Part shown: in pieces, positions 1 to 9,900 of the stretch
Layout of the letters: every line of letters begins with the position of its first letter
Numbering within the stretch: position 1 is the first letter of the stretch
Assembly: GCA_965208675.1 (NCBI GenBank)
Contig: OZ242351.1
Span: 4,000,001-4,064,000, forward strand
From: Candidatus Poribacteria bacterium
GTDB lineage: Bacteria; Poribacteria; WGA-4E; PCPOR2b
DNA: 64,000 nucleotides
Reading direction: 5' to 3'
The notes under the pieces: generated by a model
Told to the model about the DNA's origin: nothing
Databases searched by the model: none
What the model saw: only the letters and a program-made list of their open reading frames with translations
Made by a program: the position numbers and the translations under genes

Positions 1-870
1 TTCGGATTCAAATACCTGTTATCGGACAATCTGACGTTCAAGGGAAGTTGGGGGCGGTTCAGTCAATTCCTTTTTACTGTGAACGACGAAGATCAGGTGC
101 TGCAAATCGTCGATTTTTGGCTGCCGGTGCCTGAAGAATATGATGCCATAAAGAATCAACATTTCATTCTTGGATTTGAAAGATGGTTTAACCCGGGATT
201 TACCGGATCAGTTGAGGCATATTATAAACCCTACAGCAACGTCCTCACTAGCAATCTCGGCAACGATCCCGGCCGTGCGTTTGATGATTTCATCTCGGGT
301 ACAGGACGTGTTTGGGGTTTGGAACTTTTCATGAAGAAAACCGCCGGGAAATTTACGGGCTGGCTCGGCTATTCATATTCGAATGTTGAAAGGCGGTTCG
401 ATTTCAACCAAGATGGAAGGGTCGAAAAGACAGAGAATCGTGCGTCGGAAATCTATCCACCCAAATATTCGAGGCCGCATTCGCTCAACTTCGTTACCAG
501 TTACCAGATGAGCCGGAACAACCGGTTCTCACTCTCCTGGACCGTGTCAAGCGGTCAACCCTATACACCGGTCGTCGGCAAAGTCTATTATGGCGGCGAC
601 TCGCCGGATAACCCCTATGGGGACGTTATTAGTATAGAAGGCAGAAAGAATTCATCGCGGTATCCACCCTACGTACGCGGAGATATTGCCTGGATCAGAG
701 ACATCTCACCCTTCGGGGCGAACGGAAAATTCAAGCTGCAGGTCATCAATTTTACCAATCATTACAACTATCTACTCTATATTTGGGATCACGACCGTTC
801 ACCGTCAAAAGTTACAGCAATTAGTATGTTTCCAATTATCCCGACATTCGGAATAGAATTTGAGTTCTAA
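1..870 (+). CDS. TonB-dependent receptor, C-terminal part (starts before the window)
   Basis: Frame 1 is open from base 1 (FGFKYLLSDNL...). It has barrel motifs GSVEAYYK, GWLGYSYS and SGQPYTP, and a C-terminal beta-signal FGIEFEF. Confidence 0.85.
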   Translation, partial: FGFKYLLSDNLTFKGSWGRFSQFLFTVNDEDQVLQIVDFWLPVPEEYDAIKNQHFILGFERWFNPGFTGSVEAYYKPYSNVLTSNLGNDPGRAFDDFISGTGRVWGLELFMKKTAGKFTGWLGYSYSNVERRFDFNQDGRVEKTENRASEIYPPKYSRPHSLNFVTSYQMSRNNRFSLSWTVSSGQPYTPVVGKVYYGGDSPDNPYGDVISIEGRKNSSRYPPYVRGDIAWIRDISPFGANGKFKLQVINFTNHYNYLLYIWDHDRSPSKVTAISMFPIIPTFGIEFEF

Positions 871-1918
871 GAGGAAAACCGTGCATATTCTAAGAGTCTG
901 CCTCGCGGCGCTCTTGCTAGTTGCCGCGCTCTCATGCGAGCGGGAACTGGAGGTCGCCGATTTCAAAGATGATTTCGGAAATTACCAACCGGAACTAAAA
1001 GTTGAGGGTTTGCTTGACTATGATGCTCCGGAAAATTCCGTCATTCGGATTATCAGAACCGAGGCGATTGCGGAATCTGATGTGTTCGACGGAATTGACA
1101 ATGACGGAGACGGCGAAATTGACGAGTATGATGAGACGCTCCCGCTTATTCAGGATACAACGGCAACCGTCACTGTGACGAATTTAAATTCAGGGGAGGC
1201 ATACGAATTCCTGTACGTTACGCTGGCGGAGGAGTTGTTCTATCGGGAATTTCATGATGATTCCCCCCGCCTAGCTGGAAGAAGGGTTTATGGCGATGGC
1301 GGCTACAAACCAAAAAGTGCAGACGGTTTTCAGGTGGAACTCTTTGCCCAATATCGTTTGGAAATCTTTTCCGAAGCCTTCGACCAGACAATTACCGGCG
1401 TGACGACAGTCTATCCGCCGGTTGAATTCATCGACATTGATACCCTCTCAATCCTTAACGGCGGCCGCATAACGCTGGATAGAAATGTCGAAAAGACTAT
1501 CTACTGGCGTTCAGACTTGGAGGTGACTTCATACTTCGTTACCGTTGTCACCGTATTTGAATTGGACAACGTATTTCTTGAAGAAGAGCTATTCCTTGAG
1601 GACCCGCAACTCCATGAGGACGAACGGTTCGTCGAATCTGTCGATTCGTTCTCACTGTCCAGGGACAAAGATTTGACAGAACAGCACGGAGTCTCAATCG
1701 GCAAAGAGAGTTTCTTTGTGGGGCGGGAGGCTAATGCCGGCAAAACCTTGTCAATAATCGTCGACGGGCTAAGCCCGGAATATGGGCGTTACATCTTTTC
1801 GGCGTTGCCGCTGAACGACGCGCAGAGATCCAACCTTCGCGATCAAGACGGAAAACCCGTCATGGGCGCCTTCGGCGCAACCGCGTCAAACAGAATACAA
1901 GTGGAAATCGAAGAGTAA
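860..1918 (+). CDS. Lipoprotein accompanying the TonB receptor (DUF4249-like)
   Basis: Lipobox ALSC followed by ERELEV...ELKVEGLL. Overlaps the receptor stop. C-terminal MGAFGA. Internal DGIDNDGDGEIDE acidic loop. Confidence 0.7.
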   Translation: MSSKRKTVHILRVCLAALLLVAALSCERELEVADFKDDFGNYQPELKVEGLLDYDAPENSVIRIIRTEAIAESDVFDGIDNDGDGEIDEYDETLPLIQDTTATVTVTNLNSGEAYEFLYVTLAEELFYREFHDDSPRLAGRRVYGDGGYKPKSADGFQVELFAQYRLEIFSEAFDQTITGVTTVYPPVEFIDIDTLSILNGGRITLDRNVEKTIYWRSDLEVTSYFVTVVTVFELDNVFLEEELFLEDPQLHEDERFVESVDSFSLSRDKDLTEQHGVSIGKESFFVGREANAGKTLSIIVDGLSPEYGRYIFSALPLNDAQRSNLRDQDGKPVMGAFGATASNRIQVEIEE

Positions 1919-1926
1919 TACTTTTC

Positions 1927-2066
1927 GGTTCTTGTCGGTTGGGTAGAGCGATCAACCGACCGAATAGGGAGGGATCAACCGAGTGAATAACGAGGGCGAT
2001 AGTCTTATCCGAATGGTTTGCGATAAACCAAAAACTCCGCAATACCCAAAAGCGTTGGCTTTCGCT
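1927..2066. repeat. Family-A composite GTAG palindromic element, truncated copy (A1) containing module M
   Basis: GTTCTTGTCGGTTGGGTAGAGCG, then ATCAACCG...GATAGTCTT, then ...CAAAAGCGTTGGCTTTCGCT. The same blocks recur at 3301, 4716, 6990 and 8489. Confidence 0.8.
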
Positions 2067-2116
2067 CCACCACATTACTTACCAAACAATTGATGCATAC
2101 GATCCAATTTCTAAAT

Positions 2117-2555
2117 ACCCCCCTGATAAGGGGGGCTAGGGGGTTGCCACTCTTTTTTATTCGGATAGCGCTTTTCAGATTAAAGCTAGCCAATCCATAA
2201 GCCATCCAAGGGAATTGTCAGCCTCTACCCCATTGTAGGCGGTGAATCTTGCCCCGCAAAGTAGTAGGCACACTCCGTGTGCCGTAATCTTCTTTGAAAT
2301 CACACTACCCATACAATACACCATAACCGCGCAATCTAGCGATTGAATAGGGCGCAATAGTCGTCGGCTCCTGTATCCTGTAGGAGCGATCTCCGAATCG
2401 CGGCACTTATTTGAAACCGAGTTTTTTTCTTCAAAACTCGGTTTCTCCTAATCCTAATTGCAGTCCGAATCTCAGATTTAATAGATTCTAACGTGAATTC
2501 GGCCTGAACAATGTCTCAGACGAAATCGTAATCTATCCGACAGGAGTTGAATACT
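2117..2555 (+). repeat. Duplicated ~440-bp palindrome-packed leader of secreted paralog 1 (copy at ~5806-6241; partial copy at ~3616-3798)
   Basis: Direct alignment by eye. Contains CCCCTGATAAGGGGG, GTAGGCGG..GCCCCGC, GTAGGCACACTCCGTGTGCC, GTAGGAGCGATCTCCGAATCGCG, GAAACCGAGTTT..AAACTCGGTTTC and an AGGAG RBS. Confidence 0.9.
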
Positions 2556-3311
2556 ATGCCAATCAAAACTTTCCGATTCGTGATTGTTCTCTTGGGAACC
2601 GTCGCTGTGTTTGTGCGAATGTGTATCGCTGGTACGTGGATAGACGATTTCAGTGACCGAACCCTTCGAGATTGGGAAGGCGGTCTAATAAATGACGAGG
2701 TTAGCGCAGGTGTTGTTGGTGGACACTTCTATTATAGAGGAAAAAATGAACGAGCAGGTTATTATATGAAAAATTGGGCATTAGGGAAAATCCAAGATTT
2801 TTCGCTCGAGTTGAAGTTTATGGTTAGAGACCTCCGAGTCCCAGAGCGGTGTTCTTGGACTATTAATTATGACTCATTTAACGTAGAAACGCTGAATCGC
2901 AACGGGCTGATGGGCTTTTTGTGGTATCCCAATTTTGAGAAACCCAACATTATGGATGTTACAATTGATCGCTTCGAGCGGGAGGGGCACGCCTGGATTC
3001 CACAGACCGCTGCAATAGACAGCTTCGCATTCGAAGAAAAGGTCTGGTACACATTGCGGATTGAACGCGAAGGAAACCAATACACTTTTTCGATGGGCGA
3101 TTTGATTTTATTCGCAGAAGATGATACAGTGCAGATGGGTACGATTGAGCTGAGATTTTATGAACGGAATACCATCTGGTTGGATGATTTTACAGTGACC
3201 GGCCCCGATGTTCCGAATGGCGGACCTGGCTTTTTGGGAGTCAATCCATTGGCAGAACAATTAACGACGATGTGGGGAAAGCTGAAAGCACAGAACTGGC
3301 AGTTCTTGTAG
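2556..3311 (+). CDS. Secreted beta-rich protein with C-terminal LTTMWGKLK motif, paralog 1
   Basis: AGGAG RBS, signal peptide ending CIA, then GTWIDDFSD. WYTLRIER and IWLDDFTVTG strands resemble ConA/LamG-like jelly-rolls (inference). About 76% identical to paralog 2 by eye. Confidence 0.85.
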   Translation: MPIKTFRFVIVLLGTVAVFVRMCIAGTWIDDFSDRTLRDWEGGLINDEVSAGVVGGHFYYRGKNERAGYYMKNWALGKIQDFSLELKFMVRDLRVPERCSWTINYDSFNVETLNRNGLMGFLWYPNFEKPNIMDVTIDRFEREGHAWIPQTAAIDSFAFEEKVWYTLRIEREGNQYTFSMGDLILFAEDDTVQMGTIELRFYERNTIWLDDFTVTGPDVPNGGPGFLGVNPLAEQLTTMWGKLKAQNWQFL

Positions 3312-3615
3312 GTTGGGTAGAGCGATCAACCGACCGAATAGGGAGGGATCAACTGAGTGAATAGCGAAGGCGATAGTCTTGACCGGCAACCAAAACGACT
3401 ACCAAACGAAAAATCCGTCCCATTTACGCGAAAACTCCGCCGTTTATCATGGATTAAATTATCATCGTATTGACGCTATCACTAGCCTATCCAAACGTCC
3501 CAAAAGCGTTGGGTTCGCTACACCTTAACAATTTCAGCACATATTCCAATACCGAAATCCATTGGACATTATTCGCGTCTTTCATTTAATCCGCTTAACC
3601 CAACCTACAAAAACT
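3301..3615. repeat. Family-A composite element (REPIN/MITE-like) with terminal inverted repeats (A2)
   Basis: Begins AGTTCTTGTAGGTTGGGTAGAGCG and ends CGCTTAACCCAACCTACAAAAACT, a near reverse complement. Confidence 0.9.
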
Positions 3616-3798
3616 GTATCCTATAGGAGCGATCTCCGAATCGCGGTACTCATTTGAAACCTAGTTTTTTCTTGAAAACTCGGTTTCTCCTAATCCTAAT
3701 TGCAGTCCGATTCTCAGATTTAATAGATTCTAGCGTGAATTCAACCTGAACAATGACACAGACGAAATCGTAATCTTTTCGATAGGAGTTGAAATACT

Positions 3799-4542
3799 AT
3801 GCCAATCAAAACTTTCCGATTCATGGTTGTTCTCTTTGTAACCGTCGTTTTGTTTGGACGAATGTGTATCGCCGGTACGTGGATAGACGATTTCAGTGAC
3901 CCAACCCTTCGAGATTGGGAGGGCAGTCGAATAAATGTCGGGTTTAACACAGGTGTTGTTGATGGACACTTCTATTATAGAGGAACAAATCAACACGTTA
4001 ATGATATGGAGAATATTGCATTAGGGAAAATCCAAGATTTTTCGCTCGAGTTGAAATTTATGATTAGAAACCTCCGAGTTCCAGAGTATAGTTTTTGGAC
4101 TATTGAATATTCTTCATTTAACGAAGAAACGTGGAATTACGACGGGATTATGCAATTTTTGTGGTATCCCCAAGGGGAACCCAAAATTAACATTATGGAT
4201 GTTACAATTGATTGCTTCGAGCAGGAGGGGGACGCCTTTTTTCCACAGACCGCTGCAATAGACAGCTTTGCATTCGAAGAAAAGGTCTGGTACACGTTGA
4301 GGATTGCTCGCGAAGGAAACCAATACACTTTTTCGATGGGCGATGTTAGCTTATTCACAGAAGATGATACAGTGCCTATGGGGACGATTGAGTTGTCCTT
4401 TCATGGACGGAATACCATCTGGTTGGATGATTTTATCGTGACCGGCCCCGATGTGCCGAATGGCGGTCCAGGCTATTTGGGAGTCAATCCATTGGCAGAA
4501 CAATTAACGACGATGTGGGGAAGGCTCAAAGCACAGAACTGA
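3799..4542 (+). CDS. Secreted beta-rich protein with C-terminal LTTMWGRLK motif, paralog 2
   Basis: Same RBS, leader, signal peptide and framework as paralogs 1 and 3. Confidence 0.85.
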   Translation: MPIKTFRFMVVLFVTVVLFGRMCIAGTWIDDFSDPTLRDWEGSRINVGFNTGVVDGHFYYRGTNQHVNDMENIALGKIQDFSLELKFMIRNLRVPEYSFWTIEYSSFNEETWNYDGIMQFLWYPQGEPKINIMDVTIDCFEQEGDAFFPQTAAIDSFAFEEKVWYTLRIAREGNQYTFSMGDVSLFTEDDTVPMGTIELSFHGRNTIWLDDFIVTGPDVPNGGPGYLGVNPLAEQLTTMWGRLKAQN

Positions 4543-4715
4543 CCGAATCCGTTTTCCCGTCTTCCGAGCTTGCTATTACCCACAAGTCTCTGGAGTCAAA
4601 CGCCGTCTATGTTGGGGCTAAGAACGACTGTTCATTTCGGTATGGTGTAAACTGTGGGAAGGACATCCCTGTCCCGATAATCAGGGCTAGGAAGCCCTTC
4701 CCACAGGAGCTTCAC

Positions 4716-5012
4716 AGTTCTTGTAGGTTGGGTTGAGCGGACTTCACCAAATGATGTACAATTTCACGTTTTGCTCTAGAAGTCTAACGACGTCCAAGAT
4801 CCGATGGACAGAGCGTAACCCAACGATCAACCGAGCGAATAGCGAAGGCGATAGTTTTATCCGAATGGCTTCCGATAAACCAAAAACTCCGCAATACCCA
4901 AAAGCGTTGGGTTCGCTACACCTTAACAATTTCAGCACATATTCCAATACCGAAATCCATTGGACATTTTTGCGTCTTACATTTAATCCGCTTAACTCAA
5001 CCTACAAAAACT
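4716..5012. repeat. Family-A composite element (A3)
   Basis: Left arm GTAGGTTGGGTTGAGCGG-71 nt-AGCGTAACCCAAC, module M, spacer, then an inverted right arm ending CCTACAAAAACT just before dapB. Confidence 0.9.
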
Positions 5013-5013
5013 T

Positions 5014-5757
5014 ATGGAAAGTACATCAATGCCCACCCGTGTTTTAGTGAATGGAGCCTCAGGTAGAATGGGACAGGTTGCGATAGAGGCAGTTAATCTT
5101 GATGGCGGTCTGGAACTGGCGGGAACGGGACATCGAGGAGACGACCTATTATCCCTGATTGAGATAACTAATCCCGATGTTGTGTTGGACTTTACAACAG
5201 CAACGGTTGTCTTTGAAAACACCGCAACTATCATCAAAGCAGGCGTGCACCCCGTAATCGGAACAAGTGGCTTGTTGGAAGCCCAAGTTGAAAAGTTGGT
5301 TGCGTTGTGTGAACAGCAGCGACTAGGAGGCGTAATCGTGCCGAACTTTTCTATTTCTGCTGTGTTGATGATGAAGTTTGCAAAGCATGCGGCGCGTTAC
5401 TTTGACAGAGTTGAAATAATTGAGCGTCATCATGATGAGAAAAAAGATTCGCCTTCGGGCACAGCCATAAGAACCGCGGAGATGATGGCAGAGGATATTT
5501 CTTCACGAGATGATATTGAGGAGGAAGCAACGATTCCGGGGGTGAGAGGTGCGCTCTATCAGGGGATTTCAATACACTCGATACGGTTGCCCGGTCTGGT
5601 TGCGCATCAGGAGGTTCTTTTTGGCGGACCGGGCCAATTGCTAACCATAAAAAGTGATCTTATCAACCGAGATGCATTTAGTCCGGGGATTTGCCTTGCC
5701 TGCAAGGAAGTCGTAAACTTAAACGAATTGAAATGCGGTCTGGAACAATTTTTATAA
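5014..5757 (+). CDS. dapB: 4-hydroxy-tetrahydrodipicolinate reductase
   Basis: VNGASGRMG nucleotide-binding motif, VIGTSG, ERHHDEKKDSPSGTA catalytic motif, HSIRLPG. True start may be the ATG at 5029. Confidence 0.95.
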   Translation: MESTSMPTRVLVNGASGRMGQVAIEAVNLDGGLELAGTGHRGDDLLSLIEITNPDVVLDFTTATVVFENTATIIKAGVHPVIGTSGLLEAQVEKLVALCEQQRLGGVIVPNFSISAVLMMKFAKHAARYFDRVEIIERHHDEKKDSPSGTAIRTAEMMAEDISSRDDIEEEATIPGVRGALYQGISIHSIRLPGLVAHQEVLFGGPGQLLTIKSDLINRDAFSPGICLACKEVVNLNELKCGLEQFL

Positions 5758-5758
5758 G

Positions 5759-6241
5759 AGTTCTTATAGGTTGGGTAGAGCGATCAACCGACCGAATTTT
5801 TAAATTCCTCCCTGATAAGGGGGGCTAGGGGGGTTGCCACTCTTTTTTATTCGTTTATCGTACTTCAGAATGAAGTTCCCCGATCCATAAGCCGTCGAAG
5901 GTCATTGTCAGACGCTACCCCATTGTAAGAGGGGCATCTTCCCCCGCAAAGTAGTAGGCACACTCCGTGTGCCGTAATCTTCTGTGAAATCACACTACCC
6001 ATTCACCGCAACCGCGCAATCAAGCGATCGAAAAGGGCGCAATAGTTGTCGGCTCCTGTATCCTGTAGGAGCGATCTCCGAATCGCGGCACTTATTTGAA
6101 ACCGAGTTTTTTTCTTCAAAACTCGGTTTCTCCTAATCCTAATTGCATCCCGATTCTCGGATTTATTAGATTCTAACGTGAATTCAGCCTGAACAATGAC
6201 ACAGACGAAATCGTAACCCTTTAGACAGGAGTTGAAATACT
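5759..6241 (+). repeat. Half family-A arm (5759-5797) fused to a second copy of the ~440-bp leader
   Basis: AGTTCTTATAGGTTGGGTAGAGCGATCAACCGACCGAAT followed by sequence colinear with 2117-2555. Confidence 0.9.
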
Positions 6242-6988
6242 ATGCCAATCAGAATATTCCGATTCATGATTGTTCTCTTCGTAACCGTCTTTGTGTTTGG
6301 ACGAATTTGTATCGCCGGGACGTGGATTGACGATTTCAGTGACCGAACCCTTAGAGATTGGGGGGGCGGTCGAAGAAATCACGAGTTTAGCACAGGTGTT
6401 GTTGGTGGACACTTCTATTATAGAGGGATAGTTGAACAAGCATTTTGTCATATGGAGAATAGGGGATTAGGGAAAATCCAAGACTTTTCGCTCCAGTTGA
6501 AGTTTATGGTTAGAAACCTCCGAGACCTACGGCAGGGTTTTTTGACTATTGATTATTCTTCATTTAACGAAGAAACGTGGAATACCGACGGGATTATGCA
6601 ATTTTCGTGGTATCCCCAAGGGGAACCCAAAATTAACATTATGGATGTTACAATTGATTGCTTCGAGCAGGAGGGGGACGCCTTTTTTCCACAGACCGCT
6701 GCAATAGACAGCTTTGCATTCGAAGAAAAGGTCTGGTACACGTTGAGGATTGCTCGCGAAGGAAACCAATACACTTTTTCGATGGGCGATGTTATATTAT
6801 TCGCAGAAGATGATTCAGTGTCGATGGGTACGATTGACCTGTTATTTTTTGGAAGGTGTACCGTCTGGTTGGATGATTTTACCGTGACCGGCCCCGATGT
6901 GCCGAATGGCGGGCCTGGCTTTTTGGGAGTCAATCCATTGGCAGAACAATTAACGACGATGTGGGGAAAGCTGAAAGCACGGAACTGA
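6242..6988 (+). CDS. Secreted beta-rich protein with C-terminal LTTMWGKLK motif, paralog 3
   Basis: Same architecture as paralogs 1 and 2. Bases 6607-6794 are identical to 4161-4348. Confidence 0.85.
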   Translation: MPIRIFRFMIVLFVTVFVFGRICIAGTWIDDFSDRTLRDWGGGRRNHEFSTGVVGGHFYYRGIVEQAFCHMENRGLGKIQDFSLQLKFMVRNLRDLRQGFLTIDYSSFNEETWNTDGIMQFSWYPQGEPKINIMDVTIDCFEQEGDAFFPQTAAIDSFAFEEKVWYTLRIAREGNQYTFSMGDVILFAEDDSVSMGTIDLLFFGRCTVWLDDFTVTGPDVPNGGPGFLGVNPLAEQLTTMWGKLKARN

Positions 6989-6989
6989 C

Positions 6990-7234
6990 AGTTCTTGTAG
7001 GTTGGATAGAGCGATCAACCGACCGAATAGGGAGGGATCAACTGAGTGAATAACGAGGGCGATAGTCTTTTCTTGCCTTATCCGTATCGCTTCCGATAAA
7101 CCAAAAGCTCCGCGATACCCAAAAGCGTTGGGTTCGCTACACCTTAACAATTTCAGCACATATTCAAATACCGATATTCATTGGCCATTTTTCGCGTCTT
7201 TCATTTAATCCGCTTAACCCAACCTACAAAAACT
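6990..7234. repeat. Family-A composite element (A5)
   Basis: AGTTCTTGTAGGTTGGATAGAGCG ... CGCTTAACCCAACCTACAAAAACT, starting 1 bp after the stop codon. Confidence 0.9.
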
Positions 7235-7377
7235 CGGTGTCTCCTAACCAACGTCCGCCTTTCCCGCTCAATTTCCCACCTAAAGTCCAACCTAGACCTT
7301 TACCCAATTGTCGGTTCAACGGTTGCCCAAAAAGGCACTTGATAATTGTGTTGCTTTAAGCTACAATATAGGAAATC

Positions 7378-7635
7378 ATGTATACGGTTCGCTATCGAGC
7401 AGGCGTAGCAAAGATGCTCCAGCGTATGCCGCGGAACGTCGCTAAAACCGTTGTACGTAAGATTGACCAACTTGCTGAGTCGCCTTATGCGCCGAACAAA
7501 AATGTAACGCGTTTAAAGGGTGAACGAGGATACCGGCTCAGAGTAGGTGATTGGCGTGTGTTATATGAGATTCGGGACAATAACCTCGTCATCGAAATTA
7601 TCAAAATCGGACCAAGAGGAGGCGTGTATCAATGA
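7378..7635 (+). CDS. Type II toxin, RelE/ParE superfamily
   Basis: 85 aa with GYRLRVGDWRVLYEI and C-terminal IGPRGGVY. 4-bp overlap with the downstream HTH gene. Confidence 0.9.
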   Translation: MYTVRYRAGVAKMLQRMPRNVAKTVVRKIDQLAESPYAPNKNVTRLKGERGYRLRVGDWRVLYEIRDNNLVIEIIKIGPRGGVYQ

Positions 7636-7991
7636 ATGTTGAGACCGTCGAAAGACAAGGAGTGGAATATGTCCTTGTACCGAGAGTACAGTACAATCAG
7701 CTCTTAGAAGATGCGGAGATGCTGAGAGACATTAGAGAGTTCCGTGAAGCAAAAGACGCTGGCGAGGAAACCTACCCGAGTGAAGTGATTAACCGGCTGA
7801 TTCTAAATGAGGAGAGTCCAATACGGGTTTATCGAGACTATCGGGGACTCACGCAGCAGCAACTCGCTGATAAGTGCGGGATTCAGCGCGCATATTTAGC
7901 AGAGATTGAAACCGGGCGCAAGGCCGGTTCCATTAAAACTTTGAAGACAATCGCCGCAGCGCTTGGCGTTGAACTAACCTCCATCTCATGA
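7632..7991 (+). CDS. XRE-family HTH antitoxin
   Basis: RGLTQQQLADKCGIQRAYLAEIETG HTH, coupled to the RelE-like toxin. Confidence 0.85.
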   Translation: MNVETVERQGVEYVLVPRVQYNQLLEDAEMLRDIREFREAKDAGEETYPSEVINRLILNEESPIRVYRDYRGLTQQQLADKCGIQRAYLAEIETGRKAGSIKTLKTIAAALGVELTSIS

Positions 7992-8165
7992 GGTGGAAAG
8001 TTTAATCGCTCTGAATTGGGAAAAGGTCGGGGATTCTCTCGTCTTTGCCGATTGGATTGGGTCGATCAAAAAGCCGGTAAGCCTGTCGCAACTGTCCACC
8101 CTTCATATTCGAGGATACGCGAAAGATTAAGATGAATTCCTTCGCAGTTATAGAAAGGTGCAATA

Positions 8166-8402
8166 ATGAGCCAAATTGTCGTAAATCCAGAAATTCTGGG
8201 TGGGAAACCAATTATCGAAAGCACTCGCCTCAGTGTAGAGCATGTGTTAGGGTTACTCGCGAGCGGCATGTCCCACACAGAGATCTTTGAAGCCTTCCCA
8301 GAGTTGAATGAAGAAAACCTTCAATTGGTGCTCGCGTATGCATCTCGGGCACTCCGTGATGAGGTGATAATCGATCTCCCAATCACCCATGGCGGGGTTT
8401 GA
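8166..8402 (+). CDS. DUF433-family antitoxin
   Basis: IVVNPEILGGKPII.STRLSV...LASGMS..EI..AFPEL signature. Confidence 0.9.
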   Translation: MSQIVVNPEILGGKPIIESTRLSVEHVLGLLASGMSHTEIFEAFPELNEENLQLVLAYASRALRDEVIIDLPITHGGV

Positions 8403-8404
8403 CA

Positions 8405-8473
8405 ATGCTACTCCCGCTTGTGACTGACATTAACATCACAGTGCCCGTCAGACAGCGACTGAATATGGATTAA
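8405..8473 (+). pseudogene. Truncated DUF5615-like PIN toxin (22-codon remnant)
   Basis: MLLPLVTDINITVPVRQRL resembles the N-terminal strand-D-x-N motif of DUF433 partner PIN toxins. It stops 15 bp before repeat A6. Confidence 0.55.
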
Positions 8474-8488
8474 ACCTGATTGAGAGCA

Positions 8489-8848
8489 AGTTCTTGTAGG
8501 TTGGGTAGAGCGGATTTATCCAAATCGGCGTCATTAACAAGTTACCGCTCCAAATTTCGAATGGTGTTTGGTAGAAATTCACGTGAAGCGAAACCCAACT
8601 CTTTTGAAAACTCCGGCAACCAAAACGACGACCAAACGAAAAACCCGTCCCATTTACCCAATCACTCCGTCGTTTTTCATTTTTCCTGTCGTCATCGTAG
8701 TGACCTTATCCCTCGTCTCCCGGGGCGTCCCAAAAGCGTTGGGTTTCGCTAGACGTGAGTTAACACCAACCATGTTGCATTTCTGGCGGTAAGAACTATC
8801 GCCCTCCCTATTCGGTCGGTTGATCGCTCTACCCAACCTACAAAAACT
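8489..8848. repeat. Family-A composite element, complete four-arm copy (A6)
   Basis: GTAGGTTGGGTAGAGCGG-73 nt-AGCGAAACCCAAC, central spacer, GTTGGGTTTCGCT, inverted module M, CGCTCTACCCAACCTACAAAAACT. Confidence 0.9.
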
Positions 8849-8866
8849 GTCCAAAATAGAGCGTGA

Positions 8867-8895
8867 TTGACACCAAATTGCTTCTGACGTATAAT
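8867..8895 (+). promoter_or_regulatory. Consensus sigma70-type promoter of the PhyH gene
   Basis: TTGACA-17 bp-TATAAT, a perfect match. Confidence 0.8.
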
Positions 8896-8916
8896 TGGTG
8901 ACTCTACTGCGGCAAT

Positions 8917-9900
8917 ATGTGCAGCGCACTCACCAATTATGGGAAGCAGATTATGGAATCTTGTGGCGTTTCAAGCGGGGACCTTGAATCCGCGCTCACG
9001 CATCTTTCCGAACACGGATACACCGTCATAGAAGGCGTGCTTAGCGGCGATGAAATCCAGCACTACCGAAGTTTTGCGGCGGAACTCTTTGAACGAGAAC
9101 GCGAGCATCCTTTCGAGCCGGAAGACGGTCCGGCGTTGCCGGCAGATGCCGAGATTGAAGCTTATCTGAAGGAGAGTTACCTAATCAGCACGGCGGAACA
9201 GGCGCGGCTCATGCGGCGAATCCGCCATACACGCGCTCAAAACCGCGGCACGCCGTGGCCCGTCGCCCCCTCAGACGTGGTTAAGAATTTCCTTCACCTC
9301 CCGACCCTGTTCGATCATGACAAGTCGCAGCGTATCTGGAACTTGGTCAACAAAGCCCCGGATTTCGGAAAACTGATAGAACATCCGGCGGTGCTTTCGT
9401 TGGCGCGGGCGGTTCTTGGGGACGATTGCGTGCTCGCCGACTGCAGCGCCACCAGTATTGGAGCGCGTACCGGCGAAGGCGGGGCATGGCATGTGGATGT
9501 GCCGCTCGGTCAGTTGCCGGAACCGCTGCCGGACTTTCCGCTGACCATCCAGAACGCTTGGATGCTAGATGCGTTTACAACGCGCAACGGGGCAACCCAG
9601 GTTGTTCCCAAAAGCCATCGCACCCGCAGAAAGCCCGCATGGGGCGCGCAGCAGGAGGACGGGAAGATTCTGACGGGACCTGCCGGCTCGGTGGCAATCT
9701 GGTTGTCAAACACATGGCACCGATCGGGGCCCAACGCAACCGGCAATCCCCGCTGGGCTATCCTCTGCTATTACTCCCGTTCATGGATAAAGCCGTTTAC
9801 CGATTTTACATCGTGCCTAGACCCGGCAATCGCGAAAACCTTCTCACCTGGTTTGCGGTATCTTCTAGGATTTTCCGCCAACGCCCCCGTGCGAGGATAG
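8917..9900 (+). CDS. Phytanoyl-CoA dioxygenase (PhyH)-family Fe(II)/2-oxoglutarate oxygenase
   Basis: GYTVIEGVL, WHVD, NGATQVVPKSH, AGSVAIW...WHRSG. Start may be 8953. Confidence 0.9.
   Translation: MCSALTNYGKQIMESCGVSSGDLESALTHLSEHGYTVIEGVLSGDEIQHYRSFAAELFEREREHPFEPEDGPALPADAEIEAYLKESYLISTAEQARLMRRIRHTRAQNRGTPWPVAPSDVVKNFLHLPTLFDHDKSQRIWNLVNKAPDFGKLIEHPAVLSLARAVLGDDCVLADCSATSIGARTGEGGAWHVDVPLGQLPEPLPDFPLTIQNAWMLDAFTTRNGATQVVPKSHRTRRKPAWGAQQEDGKILTGPAGSVAIWLSNTWHRSGPNATGNPRWAILCYYSRSWIKPFTDFTSCLDPAIAKTFSPGLRYLLGFSANAPVRG

Follow-up and report, generated by a model that had tools for sequence, protein, structure and literature searches.

Organization of the locus

This analysis concerns a 64,000-nucleotide stretch of the genome G000 (G000:C1:4000001-4064000, hereafter the window) and, within it, an islet of about 7 kb in which copies of a palindromic repeat, here designated family A, alternate with short genes. 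The G000 genome is a single contig of 4.89 Mb (49% G+C, 96.4% complete), and G001, G002 and G003 are its congeners. Direct reading of positions 1500-9500, together with the open reading frame (ORF) listing, Pfam matches and a repeat finder, reproduced the order of elements and genes given in a first-pass annotation of the same DNA. Six copies of the repeat, four whole and two cut short (A1 to A6), separate three paralogous secreted genes (gene1, gene2 and gene3), an extra dapB gene (dapB2), a ParE/helix-turn-helix (HTH) pair, a DUF433 gene and a PhyH gene; the repeat finder returned six copies of a 39-nt arm and three copies of a leader plus gene. All features lie on the + strand, and positions without a genome handle are those of the window.

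The conserved left flank is a DUF4249-like gene (860..1918; PF14054, E 3.4e-4, below the cut-off) that is syntenic in all four congeners, with 80-92% nucleotide identity in G001, G002 and G003. It is followed by A1 (1927..2075, end approximate), a shortened element that possesses the left end, an abundant ~30-nt module and the inner block, without the right end, and by a second repeat block, called b (2100..2315), made of a C6/G6 hairpin and two GTAG repetitive extragenic palindromes (REPs) of another family. Leader 1 (2316..2555) is common to all three units from 2371 on; its part 2376-2445 is a dispersed repeat with 40-60 BLAST matches, comprising a GTAG hairpin and a terminator-like hairpin, downstream of which come AATCC repeats (the TCCTAATCCTAA stretch) and then a ribosome-binding site. 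The first paralog, gene1 (2556..3311, 251 aa), has as its stop codon a TAG lying within the end of A2 (3301..3616), a whole element. Leader 2 (3617..3798) is fused straight onto the A2 right end without a b block and precedes gene2 (3799..4542, 247 aa), after which an unrelated doublet of inverted REPs (REPIN) of the CTGTGGGA...TCCCACAG family (4568..4715) lies before A3 (4716..5013), a whole element with a long left loop. Next come dapB2 (5014..5757), which encodes an extra, foreign-type dihydrodipicolinate reductase, A4 (5759..5797), reduced to the 39-nt left arm, the second copy of block b (5801..6005), leader 3 (6006..6241) and gene3 (6242..6988, 248 aa). The whole element A5 (6990..7234) is followed by the toxin-antitoxin genes (7378..7991), with a ParE-family toxin at 7378-7635 (PF05016, E 3.2e-11) and an HTH antitoxin at 7632-7991 (PF01381, E 1e-12), by the DUF433 gene (8166..8402; PF04255, E 1.9e-21) and by the whole element A6 (8489..8848), of which G002 has an orthologous copy. 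The PhyH-family dioxygenase gene (8917..9900), with a consensus sigma-70-like site at 8867-8895, forms the conserved right flank.

No consensus sigma-70 site was found in the leaders, and scans for sigma-70 sites and terminators returned 14 and 4 hits against shuffled expectations of 10.4 and 7.5, respectively. A search of positions 1500-9500 against Rfam at E ≤ 1 gave just two sub-threshold matches at chance level. In both copies of block b, a C6-TGATAA-G6 hairpin is followed by CTAGGGGGTTGCC and a T-run (2117-2165 and 5807-5855), and the hairpin region has 8-14 BLAST matches across G000.

The family-A repeat in the genome and in the order

Family A is far from confined to this locus. The 13-mer TTGTAGGTTGGGT occurs 201 times exactly in G000, against 0.15 expected, 345 times with at most one mismatch and 535 times with at most two. 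Allowing one mismatch to the 11-mer core GTAGGTTGGGT, we counted 472 family-A ends, among which 76 plus/minus pairs 150-450 bp apart correspond to whole elements of ~260 bp (peak at 250-300 bp, 41 pairs). The studied 7 kb contain 10 of the 14 ends of the window, compared to a genome mean of 0.68 per 7 kb, and are the second densest family-A cluster in G000. The densest is a four-fold tandem array at G000:1190613, where four whole elements with identical flanks stand head to tail with a period of 346 bp (G000:C1 1190613-1191910). Further dense clusters lie between unrelated genes, and some of them also contain tandem paralogs. Beyond G000, the end motif was present in 34 of the 41 genomes of the order that were searched, the four genomes of this genus holding 114-271 ends each and the remaining genomes 0-53.

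An alignment of 25 elements of 255-265 bp resolved four conserved blocks, AGTTTTTGTAGGTTGGGTTAAGCGG, GTAGCGAACCCAACGCTTTT, AAAAGCGTTGGGTTACGCT and CCGCTCAACCCAACCTACAAAAACT, separated by spacers with medians of 72, 55 and 72 nt; all four blocks were found in 29 of the 76 pairs. Each end opens with a GTAG tag followed by the stem GTTGGGTTRAGCG, which pairs with CGnAACCCAAC and has a position-wise conservation of 0.96-0.99. In sister-genus genomes, some copies consist of the outer block, 4-8 nt and then CG.GAAACCCAAC, which is a canonical GTAG REP hairpin, and other copies carry a loop of ~85 nt; the short-loop form was observed in 12 of 30 loci of the genus g5 relatives. Since short-loop and long-loop forms of one stem exist, each half of the element is a REP with a grown loop and the whole is an inverted doublet, that is, a REPIN. 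In G000 itself, 298 of 471 ends have a stem partner within 170 nt, at 75-90 nt in 211 of the 298 and within 30 nt in 31, so that family A there falls outside the small size (20-40 bp) and short loop of ordinary REPs. With terminal inverted repeats on the 25-bp scale (AGTTYTTGTAGGTTGGGTWRAGCGG, ~25 bp), an overall length of ~260 bp and no coding content, the element has the size of a MITE (a miniature inverted-repeat transposable element).

Inspection of the surroundings of the 76 whole copies revealed no visible target-site duplication or flanking direct repeat. Nothing recurrent and transposase-sized, as expected of an autonomous parent insertion sequence (IS), was found in the 23 plus/minus intervals of 450-6000 bp, whose ORFs were not Pfam-scanned. 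In the low-copy relatives G004, G006, G009, G028 and G031, no enzyme was found beside the motif, and the G006 interval consists of ordinary secreted-protein genes. A single literature search on the core 11-mer found no published description of this repeat, and none of the papers listed by a search for Poribacteria with REPIN, REP-associated tyrosine transposase (RAYT) or MITE contained 'Poribacteria'. We also considered that the two loops of an element might be mirror images of each other and rejected the idea: the left loop and the reverse complement of the right one are 0.52 identical, compared to 0.53 between elements and 0.49 after shuffling.

Overall, the composite GTAG elements belong to a REPIN population that extends over the genome and the order, and the REP/REPIN class proposed in the first-pass annotation is borne out by the GTAG stem and by the RAYT genes of relatives described below.

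RAYT genes and other enzymes

We found four Y1_Tnp matches in G000, three of them above the Pfam cut-off (G000:C1 2029831-2030331, 3522614-3523117, 190370-191050 and 2071473-2072174). Each of these genes is surrounded by its own distinct palindromic repeat and none by family A. Two of the Y1-linked families supply pieces of the locus. The GTAGTAGGCACAC...GTGTGCC repeats of block b (2258-2290 and 5948-5980) are the same as the REPs beside the Y1 gene G000:2071473-2072174, and the REPIN family at 4568-4715 (CTGTGGGA...CCCACAG) also surrounds the RAYT-like gene G000:3522614-3523117. The locus is therefore a mosaic resembling the bacterial interspersed mosaic elements (BIMEs), in which short REPs belonging to at least two further RAYT-linked families stand among the family-A elements.

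The Y1 family was searched directly in five relatives. A Y1 gene of 186-209 aa with family-A ends on both sides was found in three of them, G003, G011 and G001. In G003 (L165) and G011 (L170) these ends stand no more than about 20 nt from the Y1 ORF, and in G001 (L164) the nearest ones found are at about 425 nt on the upstream side of the gene and at about 100 nt on the downstream side. A motif screen of 88 ORFs near 30 genus-g5 loci had returned no HUH-type ORF; the RAYT surfaced only in the direct Y1-family search. At E ≤ 1e-30 the cognate RAYT is present in 9 of 40 relatives, including G001 and G003, and was not found in G002. It was not found in G000 either, where the best tblastn matches (22-29% identity) fell on the other Y1 genes. 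Family A thus appears to be orphaned of its RAYT in G000. The end counts run the other way, with 267 in G000 and 271 in G002, where no cognate RAYT was found, versus 114 and 129 in G001 and G003, which have it.

As for other enzymes of diversification, the G000 genome (96.4% complete) gave no match to the reverse transcriptase family RVT_1 (PF00078), and no integron integrase above the cut-off (TIGR02249, best 41.2 bits vs 265). Of the enzymes that the first-pass annotation had suggested searching for, a RAYT was thus recovered in relatives, and no cognate RAYT, reverse transcriptase or integron integrase was found in G000 itself.

Divergence of loops and arms

To compare loops and arms between true orthologs, we aligned A6 of G000 with its copy in G002. 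The conserved blocks show 0/27, 2/22 and 0/24 differences, and the left loop, centre and right loop show 15/68, 23/120 and 4/44 (0.09-0.22 per site). The synonymous divergence (dS) of four flanking genes between the same genomes is 0.20-0.24. Loops and centre thus diverge at about the rate of the flanking dS, and we conclude that the loops drift about neutrally while the stems are constrained. Recent copies give a consistent picture: the right halves of A2, A3 and A5, which derive from the same duplications as the genes, differ at 3/116, 6/118 and 6/116 positions, loop included (2.6-5.2%; 95-97% identical).

When the 217 long-loop units of G000 were grouped by loop sequence, 88 clusters resulted. 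The largest (26 members) contains the right loops of A2, A3 and A5, a cluster of 14 contains the left loop of A3, and the A6 loops are singletons; by BLAST coverage, the loops of the locus occur at 34-40 copies across the genome. A2, A3, A5 and A6 differ from one another by whole modules and large gaps: the ~85-nt left loop of A3 is absent from A2 and A5, and the ~100-nt centre of A2 is common only to A6. Unlike loops belong to different old subfamilies. The arms appear invariant because they are the recognised, constrained part of the element, and partly by ascertainment, since copies are found by their arms.

These results do not confirm the picture drawn in the first-pass annotation, in which loops vary by clustered, largely ungapped substitutions between invariant arms. 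Elements differ by modules and gaps, in recent duplicates the loops are as conserved as the arms, and the variation of the orthologous A6 loops equals the background. The impression of hypermutation between invariant arms arises from comparing elements that are recognised by their conserved stems yet belong to different old subfamilies.

The lectin-fold genes

The three paralogous proteins each carry an N-terminal signal peptide and align along their full length. Their predicted structure, an AlphaFold model built on 58 relatives (pLDDT 80.1, pTM 0.75), is a beta-sandwich. The best fold matches in the PDB, obtained with Foldseek, were CBM66 structures (4b1m/4azz, E 1.5e-7, TM 0.66-0.72 on target), followed by weaker matches to a galectin-like protein, 1oq1, BT3469 (4jqt), legume lectins and GH16 enzymes. 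With PF06439, gene2 stayed below the cut-off (E 1.1e-3, 19.5 bits vs 26.8) and gene1 and gene3 gave no match. A large-database search returned 69 relatives, the only named one being a hypothetical protein of 'Candidatus Poribacteria', and PF06439 was detected in 3 of the 69. According to the model, the genes encode secreted concanavalin/CBM66-like proteins with a predicted lectin fold, in agreement with the secreted binding-type products that had been proposed from the sequence.

Two further paralogs bring the family to five in G000. The four closest share 83-90% nucleotide identity and have the leader or the downstream element in common. The most distant, P4 (G000, 4161884-4162639; 73% nucleotide identity), has neither leader nor family-A element. 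The other, P5 (G000:C1 2939149-2941245), is split by an IS3-like insertion of ~1.3 kb with two overlapping transposase ORFs; it retains the leader and, of a family-A element, the right half, the left end being absent. On inspection, P5 also shows a frameshift or stop near codon 42. The family-A repeat is therefore common only to close paralogs, as expected if it was carried along by duplications. The association of paralogs and repeats on which the first-pass annotation relied does not hold for P4, a paralog elsewhere in the genome without the repeat.

Pairwise dS between the three genes is 0.13-0.19 with dN/dS of 0.73-0.86, and dN exceeds dS in windows covering codons 31-75 and 91-120. Per site, the units differ by 0.098-0.136 within the genes, by 0.070-0.081 within the leader and by 0.026-0.052 within the downstream right half. 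This excess in the genes is the single result that favours the first-pass annotation. This divergence is unevenly distributed, with gene2 and gene3 (near-)identical at codons ~106-190, where they show at most three differences and none over alignment columns 421-600. In a nucleotide alignment of nine sequences, the variable stretches are discrete blocks common to several species in different combinations. Copy b of G002 is of gene1 type at columns 61-300 (3/213 differences), of gene3 type at columns 301-360 (2/60) and 601-720 (6/120), and of the type of G002 copy a at columns 481-540 (2/60). A runs test on 95 informative sites counted 20 runs, a number as low as this occurring in 0 of 10000 shuffles. 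The shuffling of genes put forward earlier is thus visible as mosaic blocks, which point to gene conversion among the aligned copies. Blocks that remain 98.6% identical where the neutral divergence is about 0.2 imply recent exchange or strong conservation, the opposite of hypermutation. At this identity between species, the blocks suggest exchange between lineages too. Together with the near-synonymous rate of the orthologous loops, such old haplotypes contradict the local hypermutation that had been proposed.

History of the locus and dapB2

The interval from DUF4249 to PhyH contains no lectin gene in G001, one in G003, two in G002 and three in G000. In G001, no family-A element stands beside DUF4249. 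In G002, one of the two lectin genes is frameshifted and a DUF1670-like gene pair is inserted; this pair (L017 4679-6381) consists of adjacent, mutually similar ORFs of 270 and 297 aa, lies upstream of the lectin genes, occurs only in G002 and presumably belongs with DUF1670-type proteins, which it resembles. In G000, the alignment of the three units extends from the leader across the gene to the downstream element; units 1 and 3 have the left arm and block b in common as well, and unit 2 begins exactly at the A2 right end. The series of 0, 1, 2 and 3 copies in the four congeners agrees with the earlier proposal that units are duplicated and that their number varies among relatives.

The dapB2 gene matches both DapB domains above the Pfam cut-off (DapB_N 66.4 bits, DapB_C 102.6 bits). 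The A3 and A4 ends lie 0-3 nt from its boundaries: the gene stands 3 nt past the end of A3, and its stop codon is directly adjacent to the A4 arm. Besides dapB2, G000 has a second DapB gene, G000:871086, whose ortholog is the sole DapB gene in each of G001, G002 and G003. Among 61 genomes searched, dapB2 is unique to G000, and no match above 38% identity was found in the 60 relatives. Its nearest relatives in a species-representative collection are SAR324/deltaproteobacterial genes (53-57% identity), and a 5'-truncated dapB2-like gene in a Latescibacterota metagenome-assembled genome matches residues 73-247 at 73% identity and has no family-A ends in its vicinity. Searches of G000 found no further copy of the dapB2 type. 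Overall, dapB2 is an accessory gene that was probably transferred horizontally. Contigs covering dapB2 at about 94-96% identity were also seen in three other sponge metagenomes.

Metagenome runs and soundness of the assembly

All 24 listed runs contain part of the stretch; the labels were sponge metagenome (20), marine metagenome (2) and 'organism A' (4), the last covering 83-87% of words. Four runs (X1, X2, X3 and X21) were compared at the level of assembled contigs, whose many joints have sides of 20-25 nt inside repeats. In X21, which shows 0 differences and is probably the source, depth is 26-30x over the toxin-antitoxin genes, dapB and the parts unique to each gene copy, and 23-30x over the flanks.

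The gene1 variable block shows 1/134 differences in X1 and 1/177 in X2, and the gene2 N-terminal block, covered by one piece, 2/153. X3 has a single piece in gene1 (2634-2807), with 9/174 differences. For DUF4249, dapB, the toxin-antitoxin genes and DUF433, the pieces range from 6/672 to 22/278 differences (about 1-8%). The pieces are few, yet they speak against the expectation of the first-pass annotation that variants gather in the genes and spare dapB: in X1 and X2, the gene1 variable block has fewer differences than dapB and the flanks.

Interpretation of the locus

Taken together, we consider it likely, with a probability of about 0.8, that the locus was formed by tandem duplication and gene conversion in a REP-rich variable islet, with no dedicated mutation system. 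The islet would be a strain-variable segment between conserved DUF4249 and PhyH genes in the chromosome of a sponge symbiont (Poribacteria-like). There, a lectin gene with its promoter-leader and downstream repeat would have been copied in tandem, from one to three copies, and the copies would then have swapped blocks, among themselves and also with related lineages, through gene conversion or homologous recombination, while regions encoding surface loops may have evolved under relaxed or diversifying selection. The repeat would have a history of its own, in which the REP loop grew to 75-90 nt, two inverted halves formed the ~260-bp element, and loops and centres drifting at the neutral rate gave many old subfamilies. 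In the islet, the repeats may be passive, providing dispersed homology that would favour unequal crossing-over, deletion and the insertion of foreign DNA such as dapB2.

Several observations weigh against this reading. The genes diverge more than their own leader and downstream flank, which we ascribe to imported divergent blocks and to flanks that may have been homogenised or constrained. Their dN/dS is high, some windows have dN above dS, and the variable residues are weakly enriched outside strands (29/73 vs 34/129, p = 0.058). Loop length is very uniform (211/298 at 75-90 nt) even though the loops form 88 sequence clusters; this may require no more than neutral drift with few indels, or there may be a constraint on length. 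The elements stand within 0-8 nt of stop codons and of the dapB2 start, which gives the locus a cassette-like look. The two congeners richest in family-A ends are those in which no cognate RAYT was found, where a purely RAYT-driven expansion predicts otherwise. Finally, short-read contigs never bridge the repeats, and the order of the copies is taken from the single-contig assembly and from the parallel architecture of G002.

A bolder reading of the repeats is unlikely, although it is the alternative to which we give most credit. Family-A doublets, retained by the hundred without their RAYT, would form a REPIN-guided recombination hot spot and serve as portable homology for the gain, loss and multiplication of gene units, as in the 0-3 lectin copies of the congeners and the dapB2 gene between two ends, and for exchange of blocks (98.6% identical) between co-resident symbiont lineages; a variable repertoire of secreted sugar-binding proteins would then be built in this way in sponge symbionts. 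It is less probable still that REPIN pairs act as the ends of composite units moved in trans by a RAYT or another enzyme, which would have copied the lectin unit and captured dapB2. The unit boundaries do coincide with element ends, dapB2 lies exactly between two of them and occurs only in G000 among the 61 genomes, other dense clusters also contain tandem paralogs, and the four other Y1-family genes of G000 might act in trans. However, each of those genes has its own, different REP and no cognate RAYT was found in G000; the copies are in tandem and not dispersed, the lone dispersed copy, P5, is without the left end of the element, and dapB2 has no second copy in the genome. To our knowledge, the movement of gene-sized segments by RAYTs is not an established activity.

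We regard as very improbable the dedicated diversification system proposed by the first-pass annotation, in which palindromes frame cassettes and loops and genes are locally hypermutated, with a function like that of diversity-generating retroelements (DGRs) or integrons. It would account for the dense clustering of elements around three diverged paralogs, for clustered replacements at a dN/dS of 0.73-0.86, for genes diverging more than the flanking non-coding DNA and for the variable copy number among congeners. But the orthologous loops diverge at about the synonymous rate, recent duplicates retain their loops, the variable gene blocks have hardly changed from one species to another (3/213) or between sponge metagenomes, the element occurs genome-wide beside unrelated genes, P4 does without it, and neither a reverse transcriptase nor IntI nor a cognate RAYT was found in G000. 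An integron-like array without integrase, comparable to a cluster of attC sites lacking integron integrases (CALIN), with family-A elements as attC-like sites and genes as cassettes, has an equally slight chance. In integrons, the core and inverse-core consensus is GTTRRRY / RYYYAAC, an attC site reads R''-L''...L'-R' over about 57-141 bp, and GTTRRRY stands before the ORF. The family-A stem core GTTGGGT / ACCCAAC fits this consensus, the elements abut ORF ends, a toxin-antitoxin pair and a foreign dapB lie within the array, and the gene content between the flanks differs among congeners. The polarity is nevertheless reversed, with the RYYYAAC-type end preceding ORFs and the GTTRRRY-type end following them; an element of ~260 bp is outside the attC range; the 472 ends are dispersed over the genome and not in arrays; the lectin units have their own leader; the element is linked to a RAYT in relatives; and no integron integrase was detected (41 bits vs 265). 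As for a triplication created by collapse or expansion of repeats during assembly, the repeat-rich nature of the locus and the breaking of short-read contigs at every element would allow it, and we give it the lowest standing of all. Among the three copies, 10-14% of sites are different, error-free contigs of X21 cover the parts unique to each copy at a single-copy-like depth that argues against an artefact, the independently assembled G002 has the same tandem architecture with two copies, and the genome is one 4.89-Mb contig.

Relation to known repeat systems

The closest known systems are the REP/REPIN populations associated with RAYT (TnpA-REP), of the IS200/IS605 Y1 HUH family (Bertels and Rainey, 2011, PMC3116915; Di Nocera et al., 2013, PMC3733652). 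For the GTAG super-family, Di Nocera et al. report that REPs lie mostly downstream of genes, that several families occur per genome and that RAYT genes are flanked by their own REPs (PMC3733652). Family A shares with these the 5' GTAG and stem, the inverted doublets, the hundreds of extragenic copies mostly just 3' of genes, the coexistence of several families per genome and, in relatives, the single-copy Y1 gene flanked by the repeat. It differs by a loop of 75-90 nt instead of a few nt, by a doublet of ~260 bp with 88 loop clusters, and by the cognate RAYT not being found in G000 or G002, the copy-richest genomes. MITEs are described in the same source as elements of 70-300 bp with terminal inverted repeats of 15-30 bp (PMC3733652). 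Family A resembles them by its ~260 bp, its ~25-bp terminal inverted repeats and its lack of coding capacity, and differs in that no target-site duplication was seen, no autonomous IS with the same ends was found, and the link is to a Y1 RAYT, not to a DDE transposase.

The locus as a whole also recalls the BIMEs of E. coli, which are intergenic mosaics of different REP types and short motifs at gene ends; both are mosaics of REPs of different types with short motifs, and they differ in sequence and lineage. Tandem paralog families that evolve by birth-and-death with gene conversion are another parallel, and the lectin genes fit that pattern with 0-3 copies among the congeners, a stretch converted between gene2 and gene3, blocks combined as mosaics, and two broken copies, one through an IS and the other through a frameshift; we see no essential difference. 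The encoded proteins are close to CBM66/DUF1080 (PF06439, '3-keto-disaccharide hydrolase') by their predicted beta-sandwich, with CBM66 as the top structural match, and differ by a sequence that remains below the Pfam cut-off. With integrons and DGRs, the likeness is limited to an outward look of repeats between short genes and variable paralogs, whereas no IntI or reverse transcriptase was found, the repeats are dispersed and the variation is old and recombinational.

These comparisons carry a caution for REP-rich genomes, where conserved arms, unlike loops and repeats at gene boundaries can mimic a purpose-built diversification device; at this locus they are the usual mark of an old REPIN population together with tandem duplication. 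They also add a GTAG REP family, its loop enlarged to about 80 nt, that is conserved across a sponge-symbiont order and for which a RAYT can be named in relatives. That the two copy-richest congeners are apparently without this RAYT bears on the persistence of REPINs after RAYT loss. The lectin-fold family, variable in copy number and mosaic across species, may matter for surface interactions between symbiont and host.

Beyond the right flank of the islet, a short ORF at 10310-10465 matches with its first ~20 residues the N-terminus of a 611-aa helicase-like ORF of G002 (L017 15689-17524), which sits at the corresponding place and whose motifs resemble the R subunit of type I restriction enzymes. 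The gene is apparently cut off in G000 and is followed there by repeat-like GGGG/CCCC hairpin sequence.

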